From: Bacteroidales bacterium
Lineage (GTDB): Bacteria; Bacteroidota; Bacteroidia; Bacteroidales; UBA7960
DNA: 48,381 nucleotides
NCBI GenBank assembly: GCA_007128045.1
Contig: SKYG01000123.1
Coordinates: 1-48,381 of the forward strand
Reading direction: 5' to 3'
Positions 11,508 through 48,241 of this stretch are shown here, piece by piece. Under the pieces are notes generated by a model. The model had not been told where the DNA came from. It made no database searches and saw only the letters and a program-made list of their open reading frames with translations. Position 1 is the stretch's first letter. Each line of letters starts with the position of its first letter. The translations under genes and the position numbers were made by a program.

Positions 11508-12080
11508 TTATTTTAGCATGACAGCAAGCCTGGCCACCCGTTCGCCCAGCCCCCTTGCCTTGTCCAAAAAAGCAGAATGAACTCCTTCTTCATTGTCAAA
11601 AGGGTACTCCGACACAATGGCTGATGCGCCAAACGGTGATTTCCAGTCGGGACCTCCCACAACAACCATTCCAAATATAAGCATCGACTGTAAGATGTTC
11701 ATTTGGGTGATCTCCTCACCAGCCGACATCCCACCTGCCGTCACAAACGCTGCGCCGATCTTATCTTTTAATGGCTGTCCCTGAAAAGGCCAATCAGAAA
11801 TAAATTGCTGTACCTCTGGTGAGACATTTGCATTATAGACCGGACTTCCAACAATAATAGCATCTGCAGCAAGCAAGTCAGGAGTCGTGGTCTTATCAAC
11901 CGTTTTCATGATCACAGTAACCCCTTCAACCACCCTTGCACCCTCTGCAACTGCTTCTGCCATAGCCGCGGTATTACCAGTCTTACTGTGATAGGAGATT
12001 AAAACCGTTACCTGACCCACCAAGGCATTATTTGCAAGTAAAGTAACAGCTACTGCGAACAACATTACGGCAACTTTCAT
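11508..12080 (-). CDS. Flavodoxin-like fold protein (WrbA/NAD(P)H-quinone reductase-like) with a hydrophobic N-terminal segment
   Basis: Start called at ATG 12080 (MKVAVMLFAVAVTLLANNALVGQ...). The 30 upstream in-frame codons belong to a repeat element. The segment ISYHSKTGNTAAMAEAVAEG is a flavodoxin-type FMN phosphate-binding loop. Confidence 0.7.
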   Translation of the reverse strand: MKVAVMLFAVAVTLLANNALVGQVTVLISYHSKTGNTAAMAEAVAEGARVVEGVTVIMKTVDKTTTPDLLAADAIIVGSPVYNANVSPEVQQFISDWPFQGQPLKDKIGAAFVTAGGMSAGEEITQMNILQSMLIFGMVVVGGPDWKSPFGASAIVSEYPFDNEEGVHSAFLDKARGLGERVARLAVMLK

Positions 12081-12187
12081 GTGTTTATTTTTTTCCCTTT
12101 GACCTTCGACCTTCGACCTTTGACCCCCATGAAAAACAATCATGCGTCTGTGTGTCAAAGTGTTTGTCATGGGTATTTCATGTGTTT
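12081..12187 (-). repeat. About 100-nt start-codon-abutting repeat element, well-conserved copy
   Basis: In gene orientation it reads AAACACATGAAATACCCATGACAAACACTTTGACACACAGACGCATGATTGTTTTTCATGGGGGTCAAAGGTCGAAGGTCGAAGGTCAAAGGGAAAAAAATAAACAC|ATG. It is near-identical to the copies at 31588, 33222 and 35937. Confidence 0.9.
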
Positions 12188-12291
12188 AAAATTGTCTGAA
12201 TGTCTGAATGTCGAAAAGTCAAAAAAAAGGGGAAATCTTTTAATCATGCGTCTGTGTGTCAATGCGTTTATCATAGACGTGTCATGTGTTT
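12188..12291 (-). repeat. Degenerate tandem second copy of the same element
   Basis: It keeps the core AAACACATGAC..ATGATAAACGCATTGACACACAGACGCATGATT. The heptamer block is replaced by CATTCAGA-type octamers (plus strand GTCTGAAT x2). Confidence 0.75.
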
Positions 12292-12304
12292 GATTATTTA
12301 AATC

Positions 12305-31012: not shown

Positions 31013-31587
31013 TAAATTTTAGCCAGCCAATTCATGATCATCCGTTTACCATCGGGGGTAAGTATTGATTCCGGATGAAACTGCACCCCGCAAATATCCC
31101 ATTCTTTATGACTGATCGCCATGATCCTGCCTTCATCATCATAGGCATCAACCTGTAAACAATCCGGGAAGCCGTTCTTGTCTGCAATCCATGAATGATA
31201 CCGTCCGGCCATAAATGTATTGTTCACCCCATCAAACAGGTAATGAACCGGTTCATTAAGATGGATGTTGGTTGCCACACCATGATACACCTTGCTGATA
31301 TTCTTCAGCTTCCCGCCAAATGACTCTGTGATGGCCTGCAGTCCCAGGCAAACGCCCAAAATACGCTTACTACTTTTATACCTGTCTATAACAGCAAGCA
31401 ATAAACCAGCCTCATCAGGAAGACCAGGGCCAGGCGACAAAATGATCCCGTCAAACGCCTCCACCTCATCAAGGGTAAGTTCATCATTACGCTTTACCTC
31501 AACCTGAAATCCTTCTGCTTCACGTACATAGTGAACCAGGTTATACGTGAATGAATCATAATTATCCAGTACAAGAATTTTTTTCAT
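31012..31587 (-). CDS. trpG: Anthranilate synthase component II (glutamine amidotransferase)
   Basis: Start called at ATG 31587 (MKKILVLDNYDSFTYNL). The catalytic triad region is GVCLGLQ...HPES. The 30 upstream in-frame codons belong to the repeat element. Confidence 0.9.
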   Translation of the reverse strand: MKKILVLDNYDSFTYNLVHYVREAEGFQVEVKRNDELTLDEVEAFDGIILSPGPGLPDEAGLLLAVIDRYKSSKRILGVCLGLQAITESFGGKLKNISKVYHGVATNIHLNEPVHYLFDGVNNTFMAGRYHSWIADKNGFPDCLQVDAYDDEGRIMAISHKEWDICGVQFHPESILTPDGKRMIMNWLAKI

Positions 31588-31684
31588 CTGTTTATTTTTT
31601 TTCCCTTCGACTTTCGACCTTTGACCCCCATGAAAAACAATCATGTGTCTGTGTGTCAAAGCGTTTATCATGGGCATTTCATGG
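31588..31684 (-). repeat. About 100-nt start-codon-abutting repeat element inside the trp operon (trpE-trpG spacer)
   Basis: In gene orientation it reads CCATGAAATGCCCATGATAAACGCTTTGACACACAGACACATGATTGTTTTTCATGGGGGTCAAAGGTCGAAAGTCGAAGGGAAAAAAAATAAACAG|ATG. Confidence 0.9.
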
Positions 31685-31708: not shown

Positions 31709-33121
31709 TCACAAACTAAATTGTTCTGCCAGCTTTATTGCCTTGCGCAAGGCAGATATTTTTCCGTTTACTTCCTTTAACTCACCCTCTTCACTGGAGT
31801 CGATAACCACACCGGCCCCGGCCTGATAAACAAGTTTCCCACGTTTGCTCATAAAGGAACGTATCATAATGGCATGGTTTAGGCTTCCCCCCAGCCCCAG
31901 TATTCCAATGGCGCCACCATAAAAGCCCCTGGCCGTGCCTTCATAACTATCAATCAGTTGGATGGCTTTGTGTTTTGGTGCGCCAGACAAGGTTCCGGCA
32001 GGAAAGGTGTCGGCAAACAACCGGTAGTTGTTGTTGGTGCGAAACATCTTACCTTTAACGGTCGACACCAGGTGAATAACATGTGAGTATGTATGCACCT
32101 CTCTGAATGTTTCAACAGTTACATCATCAGAATGCTTACTTAAGTCATTGCGCGCCAAGTCAACAAGCATACAATGCTCCGCATTTTCTTTCTCGTTCTT
32201 TAGCAGATCAGCTATCAATGCGGCATCCTCGTCCGGACTACCGGTTCTGATGACTGTTCCGGCTATGGGGTTGATAACAGCTATTCCATCACTGATCCGG
32301 AGTTGGGCTTCGGGTGATGAGCCAAACAGCTTGTAGCTCAAGTAGTCGAAGTAAAAAAGATACGGTGACGGATTGATAGAACGAAGAGCCCGGTAAACAT
32401 TAAATTCGTCGCCGGAAAAGTTCTGTTCGAAGCGGCGTGACAAAACAATTTGAAACACATCTCCTCTGGCGCAGTGCCTGATTCCGTTTCTGACCATTTC
32501 CATAAAACGTTCGTCGCTGACGGGGGTAAATTCTTCACCAGTGGCCATAAACGGGAAGCTGGTTGCATTTCTGTTTGCCAGAAGAGACATTACCTTGGAA
32601 ATCATAGACTTTTCACCTTCGGCAATTAACTCCGTGATGCTTAATGTATTGTTAAAGTGGTTGAAGGCAATAACCACCTGGTACAGGTCATACCTGAGTA
32701 AAGGGATGCGATCAGCATCTGCCTCAGGTGATGTGATATTCACATTGTCGAACAAGCTCACTGCATCGTAAGAGGTATAGCCAAACAATCCAGGCATGGT
32801 CTTTTCGCTGAAGTCACCTTCTATTTTGATGGTTCCAAGATACTGGTCAATCAAATTTGATACGGCATGATACCCTTCGAAAGAAAGATGATCATCTGCC
32901 TGGCCCCTTTTTCTGAGGTAAAAATTGTCTGCACTGGCCTCGAAGCCCATGATGGGAGTCAGACAAATATAGGAGTATGAATCATGCCGGGAGCTGTAGT
33001 CTGAACACTCCAGCAATAAACTCTGCGGAAAAGCATCCCGCAAACGAAGGTATATTCCCACAGGCGTGTATGTGTCTGCCTGCAAATGTATTGTCGTTGC
33101 CTTTAATCTGATATCGTTCAT
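31709..33121 (-). CDS. trpE: Anthranilate synthase component I
   Basis: 470-aa ORF. The chorismate-binding C-terminal domain carries GTLSGAPK and GGAIG motifs. Confidence 0.9.
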   Translation of the reverse strand: MNDIRLKATTIHLQADTYTPVGIYLRLRDAFPQSLLLECSDYSSRHDSYSYICLTPIMGFEASADNFYLRKRGQADDHLSFEGYHAVSNLIDQYLGTIKIEGDFSEKTMPGLFGYTSYDAVSLFDNVNITSPEADADRIPLLRYDLYQVVIAFNHFNNTLSITELIAEGEKSMISKVMSLLANRNATSFPFMATGEEFTPVSDERFMEMVRNGIRHCARGDVFQIVLSRRFEQNFSGDEFNVYRALRSINPSPYLFYFDYLSYKLFGSSPEAQLRISDGIAVINPIAGTVIRTGSPDEDAALIADLLKNEKENAEHCMLVDLARNDLSKHSDDVTVETFREVHTYSHVIHLVSTVKGKMFRTNNNYRLFADTFPAGTLSGAPKHKAIQLIDSYEGTARGFYGGAIGILGLGGSLNHAIMIRSFMSKRGKLVYQAGAGVVIDSSEEGELKEVNGKISALRKAIKLAEQFSL

Positions 33122-33221
33122 GTGTTTATATTTTTTCTTTTGACCTTCGACCTTCGACTTTTGACCCCATGAAATATAATCATCCCCATGTGTGTCAAAA
33201 CGTTTGTCATGGGAATTTCAT
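33122..33221 (-). repeat. Repeat element, trpE-proximal copy (divergent)
   Basis: In gene orientation it reads ATGAAATTCCCATGACAAACGTTTTGACACACATGGGGATGATTATATTTCATGGGGTCAAAAGTCGAAGGTCGAAGGTCAAAAGAAAAAATATAAACAC|ATG. Paired substitutions CTTTGAC>TTTTGAC and GTCAAAG>GTCAAAA are present. Confidence 0.9.
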
Positions 33222-33326
33222 CTGTTTATTTTTTTCCCTTTGACCTTCGACCTTCGACCTTTGACCCCCATGAAAAACAATCATGCGTCTGTGTGTCAAA
33301 GCGTTTGTCATGGGTATTTCATGTGT
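33222..33326 (-). repeat. Repeat element, trpE-distal copy (consensus-like), in tandem with the proximal copy
   Basis: It is essentially identical to the copies at 12081-12187 and 35937-36043. Confidence 0.9.
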
Positions 33327-33345
33327 ATATAATTTGCTATAACAG

Positions 33346-33379
33346 CAAGAGCCCACTTAACATGTTAAGCGGGCTCTTG
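33346..33379 (-). terminator. Candidate trp attenuator hairpin (15-bp stem)
   Basis: On the minus strand it reads CAAGAGCCCGCTTAA-CATG-TTAAGTGGGCTCTTG, with one G-U pair. It lies 31 nt downstream of the Trp-leader stop. The trailing CUGUUAU is only moderately U-rich. Confidence 0.55.
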
Positions 33380-33410
33380 TATCAGTTAATATCTAATGAA
33401 AGTAGCTGTA

Positions 33411-33485
33411 TTATAGACCTGAACGCTTAACAACATTGCTGTCGCTGCGCCACCACCAAAAGAATACAGTACTTAAACGGCTCAT
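33411..33485 (-). CDS. trpL: trp operon leader peptide (24 aa, three consecutive Trp codons)
   Basis: ATG 33485 to TAA 33413-33411 gives MSRLSTVFFWWWRSDSNVVKRSGL. TGG TGG TGG lies at 33458-33450. It is not in the ORF track because it is shorter than 60 aa. It lies upstream of trpE on the same strand and is followed by a hairpin with an alternative pairing partner inside the peptide coding region. Confidence 0.75.
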   Translation of the reverse strand: MSRLSTVFFWWWRSDSNVVKRSGL

Positions 33486-33636: not shown

Positions 33637-33699
33637 ATGAAATTATTCACTGCTTTTTTTAGCTTTTACTTTTACTTCTTTAGCAACAAAGGGGCGTGA
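33637..33699 (+). CDS. Phe/Tyr-rich leader peptide (20 aa)
   Basis: ATG 33637 to TGA 33697-33699 gives MKLFTAFFSFYFYFFSNKGA, with 7 Phe and 2 Tyr in residues 4-15. It is the C-terminal part of the spurious 87-aa tracked ORF 33436-33699. It is followed by a canonical intrinsic terminator immediately before pheA. Confidence 0.8.
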   Translation: MKLFTAFFSFYFYFFSNKGA

Positions 33700-33742
33700 A
33701 ATTGTGTGTGTTAATTGAAAAAATAAAATACATAAAGAACCA

Positions 33743-33769
33743 GGCCCCGCGATTGCGGGGTTTTTTTTT
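33743..33769 (+). terminator. Intrinsic terminator (attenuator) 9 nt upstream of the pheA start
   Basis: The stem is CCCCGC (33745-33750) with GCGGGG (33755-33760) and the loop is GATT. It is followed by T9 (33761-33769). The pheA ATG is at 33778. Confidence 0.8.
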
Positions 33770-33777
33770 GACTATAT

Positions 33778-35792: not shown

Positions 35793-35813
35793 TTGATCTG
35801 ATGAAAACGCCAG

Positions 35814-35936
35814 TCAACATGTTTGACACACCGGCGCATGCTGACAGGCACCGGGTGAGATCCCGAACATGCGTTCGGGACTTCGCTTCGCTCAGCTGTT
35901 CGACATTCAGACTTTCAGACATTTTGACTAAAAAAT
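35814..35936 (+). repeat. Degenerate upstream copy of the start-codon-abutting element
   Basis: It retains CATGTTTGACACACCGGCGCATG, then an 8-bp hairpin TCCCGAAC-ATGC-GTTCGGGA, then CATTCAGA/CTTTCAGA octamers and an A-rich end. Confidence 0.6.
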
Positions 35937-36043
35937 AAACACATGAAATACCCATGACAAACGCTTTGACACACAGACGCATGATTGTTTTTCATGGGGG
36001 TCAAAGGTCGAAGGTCGAAGGTCAAAGGGAAAAAAATAAACAC
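35937..36043 (+). repeat. About 100-nt start-codon-abutting repeat element (reference copy)
   Basis: AAACACATGAAATACCCATGACAAACGCTTTGACACACAGACGCATGATTGTTTTTCATGGGGGTCAAAGGTCGAAGGTCGAAGGTCAAAGGGAAAAAAATAAACAC|ATG (tyrA start at 36044). Confidence 0.9.
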
Positions 36044-36889
36044 ATGAATATTTGTATTGTAGGTATCGGTTTAATCGGGGGATCTATAGCCATTGATTTG
36101 CGCAATAGGGGTTTTGCAAAACAGATCATCGGTGTTGACAGCAATCCGCACCACGCCACCATCGCGAAGCACAGTAAGTTGGTTGACGATATAGACACCC
36201 TGGAGAATGGGATAGAAAGGTCAGACCTCATCATCCTGTCAACCCCCATTGACTCTATCAAAAAACTACTTCCCAGAGCATTGGATTCTGTAACAGGAAC
36301 CAAAAAAGTCATTACCGATATGGGATCTACCAAAGGTGGGATGAGTAGTCTGGTAGAAAATCATCCAAACAGAAAAAACTATGTTGCCGCACATCCTATG
36401 GCCGGGACAGAATATTCCGGACCACTTGCCGCCATCGGCAAACTGTTCGACTATAAATGCGCCATCATATGCGACAAGGAGAAAAGTAGTCCGCAAGCTT
36501 TAAAGGTGGTGAAAAAAATGTTTGATGTTCTGAACATGAAGGTAATTTACATGAATGCCAATGAGCACGATGTAAGTGCAGCCTATGTATCACACATCTC
36601 CCATATTTCGTCATTTGCCCTGTCGTTATGCGTACTGGAAAAGGAAAAGGATCAAAAACGTATACTAAGCCTGGCCAGTGGTGGGTTTGCCTCTACCGTG
36701 AGGCTGGCCAAAAGTTCGGCTGACATGTGGACGCCGGTATTTGAACAAAATTCGATGTATGTACTTGAAGTGTTAGACACCTATATCGAAAAATTGAAGA
36801 TGTTTAAAGCCTATATCGAAAGCAACAACCAGAAAGGCATAACCGATCTTATATTGGAAGCAAATAAAATTCAGAAAATACTTAACTAA
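36044..36889 (+). CDS. tyrA: Prephenate dehydrogenase
   Basis: Start called at ATG 36044, giving MNICIVGIGLIGGSIA (a Rossmann GxGxxG right at the N-terminus). AHPMAG motif. The 30 upstream in-frame codons are repeat-element sequence. Confidence 0.85.
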   Translation: MNICIVGIGLIGGSIAIDLRNRGFAKQIIGVDSNPHHATIAKHSKLVDDIDTLENGIERSDLIILSTPIDSIKKLLPRALDSVTGTKKVITDMGSTKGGMSSLVENHPNRKNYVAAHPMAGTEYSGPLAAIGKLFDYKCAIICDKEKSSPQALKVVKKMFDVLNMKVIYMNANEHDVSAAYVSHISHISSFALSLCVLEKEKDQKRILSLASGGFASTVRLAKSSADMWTPVFEQNSMYVLEVLDTYIEKLKMFKAYIESNNQKGITDLILEANKIQKILN

Positions 36890-48045: not shown

Positions 48046-48211
48046 TGATATAAGCATGTACACGTTCTTTCATACCCGGGAAAACATTCACAAATGGATT
48101 GGCTTCGCCAAGCTCGCGATCTGCCAGGCTCCCCAGATGAAAAATCAGGGCGACCTTCCGAAAGATCGAAACTTGTTGTTCCGATTCATCGGAAAGCTAT
48201 CTGACCACGGA

Positions 48212-48241
48212 CCTTCGACCTTTGACTTTTGACTTTTGACC
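48212..48241. repeat. CCTTCGA/CTTTTGA heptamer array (partial element-like block) upstream of the ABC ATPase
   Basis: CCTTCGACCTTTGACTTTTGACTTTTGACC. This is the same heptamer family as in the 100-nt elements, but in the opposite orientation relative to the downstream gene. Confidence 0.85.

Follow-up and report, generated by a model that had tools for sequence, protein, structure and literature searches.

The region between positions 33122 and 33326 shows two minus-strand tandem copies of a non-autonomous insertion cassette of about 101 nt, which belongs to a family spread through the order Bacteroidales. The cassette contains two pairs of complementary words, S1 (CCCATGA/TCATGGG) and S2 (CTTTGAC/GTCAAAG), which the earlier note on this DNA had taken together as structure. 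Only the first part stands: cross-genome covariation and sense-strand wobble identify S1 as a genuine, evolutionarily maintained left-end hairpin, kept on the sense strand, whereas comparison of the copies shows that S2 is not maintained. We consider it probable that the units belong to a mobile start-codon cassette with a maintained S1 hairpin, in which S2 is an unmaintained by-product and there is no pseudoknot or switch.

Copies of the cassette and their position at start codons

The window, which is the whole stretch of 48,381 nt that was analysed, is contig C312 of an uncultured Bacteroidales MAG of 3.14 Mb in 389 contigs (G000); its closest TrpE relatives are uncultured Bacteroidales MAGs with identities of 67% or less. 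Positions 33117-33335 form a tandem repeat with a period of 101 and 2.2 copies. The two units and the remaining copies in the window, including the unit upstream of tyrA that serves as reference, are listed in Table 1.

Table 1. Cassette copies in the window and their elements
Feature	Position	Strand	Remarks
Unit 1, trpE-proximal, more divergent	33122..33221	-	nhmmer match 33224-33118, E=6.6e-28
Unit 1, end	33119-33121		complement is the ATG start codon of trpE
Unit 1, S1	33166-72 / 33207-13		CCCATGA / TCATGGG, + strand letters
Unit 1, S2 words	33159-65 / 33194-200		TTTTGAC / GTCAAAA, + strand letters
Unit 2, distal copy	33222..33322	-	~98% identity to the reference copy
Unit 2, old start codon	33320-33322		complement is ATG
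Unit 2, S1	33267-73 / 33308-14		
Unit 2, S2	33259-65 / 33295-301		
Unit 2, core	33279-33299		AATCATGCGTCTGTGTGTCAA
Reference unit, upstream of tyrA	35944..36046	+	similarity match spans 35930-36048
Reference unit, old ATG	35944		
Reference unit, new ATG	36044		start of tyrA
Reference unit, S1	35951-57 / 35992-98		CCCATGA / TCATGGG
Reference unit, S2 words	35964-70 / 36000-06		CTTTGAC / GTCAAAG
Reference unit, invariant core	35966-35986		TTGACACACAGACGCATGATT
Reference unit, heptamer array	36000-36027		followed by the A-rich right end TAAACACATGAA
Copy within the operon, between trpE and trpG	31583..31684	-	ends at the trpG start
Copy with 99% identity to reference	12076..12188	-	ends at the start of a 190-aa ORF
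Partial copy, module A only	12242-12299		
Partial copy	48200-48241		
Degenerate older module-A copy (ATGAAAACGCC...TTTGACACACCGGCGCATGCTGA) with hairpin module and octamer array	35803..35943	+	read directly

Iterated nhmmer searches of the MAG gave 51 near-full copies (E<1e-12) and about 190 partial copies. The partial copies are of two classes, one with module A alone (model positions ~3-57) and the other with the GTCRAAR heptamer array alone (~65-100). These numbers are lower bounds because several contigs end inside repeat copies, which break the assembly (C340:1-112, C330:1-107, C352 and C147). In the sense orientation, the 5' part of the aligned copies reads ...(T)ATAAACAnATGAAAT-ACCCATGAC-AAACGC-TTTGACACACAGACGCATGATT-GTTTT-TCATGGGG(G), and the 3' part continues as (TCAAAGG/TCGAAGG)3-4-GAAAAAAATAAACAnATGAAA.... 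Six contigs (C304, C123, C229, C114, C32 and C351) have copies with an optional nested insert of about 25 nt, GTCGAAGATCCCGATTGTTCGGGG, a small GC hairpin located within the S1 5' arm region, where it separates CCCATG from GACAAACG.

Full copies have the same orientation as the gene, with an orphaned old start, ATGAA, on one side and the present start codon (TAAACAnATGAA) on the other, and nearly all copies with the 3' module terminate at an ATG that opens a long ORF, such as those of tyrA, trpE and trpG. The word TAAACAnATGA occurs 129 times in the genome, where about 11 occurrences are expected; 96 of them precede an ORF that has 80 aa or more or runs off the contig end, and the remaining sites are mostly 5' borders of module A. 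The trp locus shows how the units are placed. Relatives with the same trp leader begin trpE about 20 nt past the attenuator terminator; at this spot the MAG has an orphaned ATGAA, followed by the two units and the trpE body, so the units are insertions at a start codon. Since copies separate the trp attenuator from trpE, and trpE from trpG, the cassette would be transcribed in sense, within the trp mRNA if operon architecture is a guide. The trp leader of the window (33346-33485, minus strand) encodes a WWW peptide (…FWWWRSDS…), contains the attenuator terminator and directly precedes the orphaned trpE start. Upstream of pheA (33638-33770, plus strand) there is a leader peptide rich in Phe and Tyr (MKLFTAFFSFYFYFFSNKGA*) with a terminator, where Rfam gives a sub-threshold match to Phe_leader (34.4 bits, E=0.003). 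At the left border of unit 2, a sigma-70-like TTGTCA-17-TATAAT with 11 of 12 matching positions (33305-33333, plus strand) is antisense and directed away from trpE. It is a match to the consensus and nothing more, and promoters in Bacteroidetes do not follow the sigma-70 consensus. The degenerate copy with its hairpin module (a GC hairpin, GATCCCGAACATGCGTTCGGGA) and octamer array is stacked immediately before the reference unit, in the interval from the aminotransferase gene to tyrA, which suggests serial insertions at successive, then-current start codons.

Across the order, 151 genomes were sampled; 15 contain the core pattern TTGACACAC-N4-7-ATGATT, and none contains the reversed pattern used as control. 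The pattern is multi-copy in G052 (73 copies), G000 (48), G144 (16), G141 (5) and G107 (4), and a separate similarity search gave 25 matches in G008. All 60 loci fetched from the core-bearing genomes show a single architecture. Their left part contains variable native upstream sequence, ATGAA, ACAnCCAyGAC, an A/T-rich stretch and TTGACACACA-N5-ATGATTAT; their right part contains variable modules, AAWWTWTAAACAnATGAA and the gene. Read in sense, the cassette thus has a left half with the native leader, the old start ATGAA, the S1 5' arm and an A/T-rich spacer, a middle with the invariant core TTGACACACA-N5-ATGATT followed by the S1 3' arm, and a right half with variable filler and the A-rich end TAAACAnATGAA, which supplies the present start codon. 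The filler of the window's units is a GTCRAAR heptamer array, and such arrays fill the cassette only in G000.

Coding and promoter readings of the cassette were rejected. Module A is not a coding sequence, since a comparison of genomes shows indels other than multiples of three from ATGAC to TTGAC, and the frames also differ among copies. Translational coupling, with the frame of the old ATG ending at a TGA that overlaps the new ATG, was found by a rough scoring script in only 10 of 71 scored copies from 12 genomes, and the distance between the old and new ATG is not conserved modulo 3. In an 89-nt subfamily of G144 (L144-L147), the old ATG opens a 30-codon frame that ends at a TGA overlapping the new ATG (ATGA); four of 11 copies have this frame, which other genomes do not show as a rule. 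A sense-strand sigma-70 promoter in the core was discarded because only 14 nt separate TTGACA from TAnnnT, a promoter scan of the element gave antisense, chance-level sites only, and the core is by eye a poor match to the Bacteroidetes -33/-7 promoter.

The left-end helix S1, the right-end helix S3 and their possible roles

The S1 words reported in the earlier note are present (Table 1) and enclose a loop of about 34 nt that contains the invariant core. When the 11-nt arms are anchored on their invariant neighbours, seven pairs are found in G000 (AATACCCATGA / TCATGGGGGTC), in G008 (CCGAGCCATGA / TCGTGGCAATG, with the 3' word TCGTGGC) and in G052 (CCGAGCCATGA / TCATGGCGAGC, with the 3' word TCATGGC and the 3' arm 37 nt further away), and 11 pairs are found in both sets of G144 (AACATCCACGA / TTGTGGATGTT and AACATTCACGA / TCGTGGATGTT) and in G036 (AACATCCATGA / TCATGGATGTT). 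Covariation was scored in an alignment (A3) of 21 sequences representing the element subfamilies of five genomes, in which the G144 rows were given a manual loop pad of four N to hold the arms in register. S1 scores 0.281 against 0.165 +/- 0.019 in shuffled alignments, none of 500 shuffles being as high, and the score is 0.092 or less with the partners slid. Pair 14/64 is CG in 10 sequences, UA in five and GC in four, and pair 18/60 is UA in 12, UG in five and CG in four. When the 3' arms are swapped among the six subfamily consensus pairs, the observed pairing is reached in four of 720 permutations; at the level of lineages, of which only about four are independent, the value is one of 24. 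Transition-type mismatches on the sense strand are 15 G.U and one A.C, counted as alignment cells and not as independent events. The stem reaches 10-11 perfect pairs in G144 and G036, and S1 is present in the predicted MFE folds of the G036, G144, G008 and G052 elements, with z down to -3.6.

Within the MAG, S1 shows no covariation above shuffles among 35 distinct copies, which resemble one another too closely for the comparison to be informative. S1 is present in every expanded subfamily. The low-copy subfamilies of G141, G100, G107, G059 and G124 lack its 3' arm, as do about eight G000 module-A copies joined to other fillers; since these keep the 5' arm without its partner, the sequence of the 5' arm is also conserved for another reason.

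Other subfamilies show a second helix, S3, at the right end. The word CCATnTG(A/G)C is located 20-30 nt upstream of the right end AACAn'ATGAA and pairs with CAn'ATG, which includes the new start codon. S3 is found in elements of G052, G144 and G008 (L120-L151 and L170-L178) and in some G000 elements on several contigs, and is absent from the 101-nt heptamer-type units of the window. Of 37 distinct instances, 33 have complementary bases at n and n' (C-G in 14, A-T in 10, G-C in eight and T-A in one), and single genomes contain a mixture of three pair types. The loop is A-rich and of 20-30 nt, and the helix is predicted in MFE folds.

Covarying inverted repeats alone do not discriminate between an RNA helix and a helix in single-stranded DNA, and the sense-specific wobble pairing fits both. 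If S1 is selected, its role may quite possibly be at the DNA level, by analogy with IS200/IS605 or REP logic: S1 would be the left-end recognition hairpin of a strand-specific mobilisation process, joined in other subfamilies by the right-end hairpin S3 pairing with the new start codon. The presence of S1 in all expanded subfamilies argues for this role, as does S3, because an RNA structure that sequesters the functional start codon would hardly be expected to be beneficial. A selected role at the RNA level is possible too, and is suggested by the obligatory sense transcription and by the position of the stem near the orphaned AUG. Since the cassette would be transcribed in sense, the S1 hairpin would also form in the mRNA, where, 2-6 nt past the orphaned AUG, it would hinder initiation at the old start. 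Both roles can be joined in one proposal, which we advance tentatively and regard as doubtful in its full form: S1 and S3 would be the base-pairing structures of a single-strand mobilisation system that recognises and rebuilds ATGAA start codons, and, formed in the mRNA, these hairpins would also mask the orphaned start. The element would then be a mobile leader cassette that targets start codons and recognises its ends through intramolecular pairing. In S3, position n covaries with the base preceding the new AUG.

It is rather unlikely that S1 is selected at the RNA level only, masking the orphaned AUG or stabilising the leader, with ribosomes using the new A-rich leader and AUG and with no part for the hairpin in mobility. 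Such a function would agree with the obligatory transcription in sense, with a 5' arm that begins +5 to +9 from the old AUG in all subfamilies and with the tolerance of G.U on the sense strand only, and S1 would be expected in all expanded subfamilies if it lessens the harm of insertion. However, the companion helix S3 pairs with the functional new start codon, which is hard to see as a benefit for expression, subfamilies lacking the S1 3' arm exist, and no frame is conserved between the old and new ATG.

More improbable still is a functionless S1, an inverted duplication inherited in a few subfamilies whose covariation reflects two or three chance events. The small number of independent lineages with their permutation value of one in 24, the nil covariation within the genome and a 3' arm that is dispensable in several subfamilies agree with this explanation, but it leaves unexplained one position with three different Watson-Crick pairs and a second with two and a wobble, changes that are in every case compensated or sense-strand wobbles, the 15 to 1 asymmetry of G.U to A.C, and the lengthening of the stem in G144 and G036.

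The S2 words and the interleaved arrangement

The S2 words are also where the earlier note had located them, both in the reference unit and in unit 1 (TTTTGAC at 33159 and GTCAAAA at 33194). The interleaved order S1-5', S2-5', S1-3', S2-3' that it described was confirmed, only in the heptamer-type copies of G000. Among 3000 dinucleotide shuffles of one unit, 23% contain at least one 7-bp stem and 0.8% an interleaved pair, under a null that ignores the fact that GTCRAAR heptamers are a genome-wide repeat word. The same note had S2 paired in every well-conserved unit and took the change to U-A in unit 1 as a single, suggestive compensatory event. Neither the first statement nor the weight given to the second is confirmed in the alignment (A2) of 35 distinct G000 copies: the first S2 pair is C-G in 21, U-G in three, U-A in two and unpaired in eight, and the 5' and 3' bases are not significantly associated (Fisher p=0.19), which leaves the two compensated copies within noise. 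In A2, the S1+S2 interleaved structure is 89.3% paired versus 89.1% in the shuffle control, and its covariation within the MAG is 0.104 in both the real and the shuffled alignments, with 227 of 500 shuffles as high. Mismatches in S2 are 11 G.U and 12 A.C, again as cell counts and not independent events, with no strand asymmetry.

Of 70 copies examined in 14 other genomes, none has a 7-mer complement of the S2 5' arm downstream; in G000, 16 of 52 module-A copies do. TTGAC within this arm is invariant in every genome as part of the core, with a partner or with none. The 3' arm is the first unit of the heptamer array, and in the reference unit the last heptamer (36021-27) offers CTTTGAC another perfect partner. 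Unit 1 shows the T variant in both outer heptamers (TTTTGAC at 33138 and 33159). GTCRAAR arrays of at least three units number 160 genome-wide, only 29 of which adjoin module A, and those upstream of start cassettes are found in both orientations (34 versus 22). Because the core contains TTGAC and the MAG fills the cassette with GTCAAAG-type heptamers, S2 is a by-product of features that are unrelated to each other. The original claim is thereby mostly deflated, its single covariation event being noise from a repeat word.

The reference copy has as its MFE fold another, nested structure, which uses the heptamers and the local hairpin and omits S1, and its z of -2.3 is modest; the divergent unit 1 shows no thermodynamic signal (z=-0.1). 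The local CATGA/TCATG hairpin that had been noted as competing for the S1 3' segment is present (35980-84/35992-96); it was rejected as a conserved competitor, being of only 4 bp in G144 and without covariation. Rfam gave no match to the element at the gathering threshold and only chance-level ones at E<=10. Without support for S2 there is none for an H-type pseudoknot or an S1/S2 switch either, S1 being maintained across genomes and S2 not, and on these comparisons the claim of a selected structure of either kind should be dropped. A cis-regulatory RNA switch in the 5' leader, with S1 and S2 as a pseudoknot or as mutually exclusive helices, is very improbable: two interleaved 7-bp complements that are rare in single-unit shuffles, a reference copy that folds somewhat better than shuffles with S2-type pairing and a location in transcribed leaders speak for it, but its S2 3' arm is a generic heptamer found in both orientations upstream of start codons, the invariant TTGAC goes without a partner in other genomes, the first pair is more often broken than compensated, the mismatches have no G.U bias, no Rfam family matches, and about 50 copies with 98-99% identity before unrelated genes fit mobility better than a riboswitch regulon.

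Comparison with known mobile repeats

The ends of the cassette are direct words, ATGAA...TAAACAnATGAA, and ATGA(A) is present at both borders in all genomes, either as a duplication or as a target word next to an identical element end. No terminal inverted repeat was found in the alignments of 51 copies or in other genomes. The searches gave no autonomous element or linked transposase; matches to PF01797, the Y1 transposase (TnpA/RAYT) family sought as cognate, occur equally in genomes with and without the element, and the two Y1 loci of G000 have no element ends nearby. IS200/IS605-derived PATEs and REP/BIME elements resemble the cassette in being small, multi-copy, intergenic and strand-specific, in lacking terminal inverted repeats, in having hairpins near their ends and in inserting beside a short specific word. 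In IS608, internal bases reportedly recognise the end and target sequences by base pairing, which the n/n' covariation of S3 resembles. In contrast to PATEs and REP elements, the cassette shows an S1 loop of about 34 nt with an invariant 21-nt core and left and right hairpins unlike each other, ends exactly at the start codon, replaces the leader and has no linked Y1 transposase; the 101-nt units of the window carry the left-end S1 without a right-end hairpin.

Correia (CREE) and ERIC elements are likewise mobile repeats of small size that share transcripts with their neighbours, and their RNA hairpins can alter mRNA processing or stability. The cassette is like them in its small size, mobility, internal complementarity and transcription with neighbouring genes, but their hairpin is made of the terminal inverted repeats of a TA-duplicating MITE, whereas S1 is subterminal at the left end and has no matching right end.

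BrickBuilt, a MITE of Porphyromonas gingivalis, has a 23-nt minisatellite and small inverted-repeat ends, is located 49-591 nt from coding sequences and shows bidirectional promoter activity (PMC4596501). It is like the cassette a multi-copy, modular intergenic repeat of Bacteroidales, with leader and tail modules around an internal tandem array, and it affects neighbouring transcription; the cassette differs in its 7-nt array units, its direct ATGAA ends, its start codon as right end and the lack of sequence similarity. The TAACTGA repeats, tandem 7-nt arrays a few nt from the start codons of unrelated genes, are also found in some Bacteroidetes, and no RNA structure is predicted for the arrays themselves (PMC4679880). 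For the GTCRAAR filler, the source of the S2 3' arm, they are the best precedent, although the GTCRAAR word is different, occurs in both orientations and is embedded in a larger cassette. The element is thus neither a terminal-inverted-repeat MITE nor BrickBuilt. Hairpins in small mobile repeats are already known; what is new is a covarying left-end hairpin around an invariant core in a start-codon cassette.

The analysis points to a small cassette that has spread through several Bacteroidales families and always ends at a start codon. Its S1 and S3 structures offer handles on how the element is mobilised, and they also bear on how genes tolerate the replacement of their leaders in a phylum that initiates translation without Shine-Dalgarno pairing.
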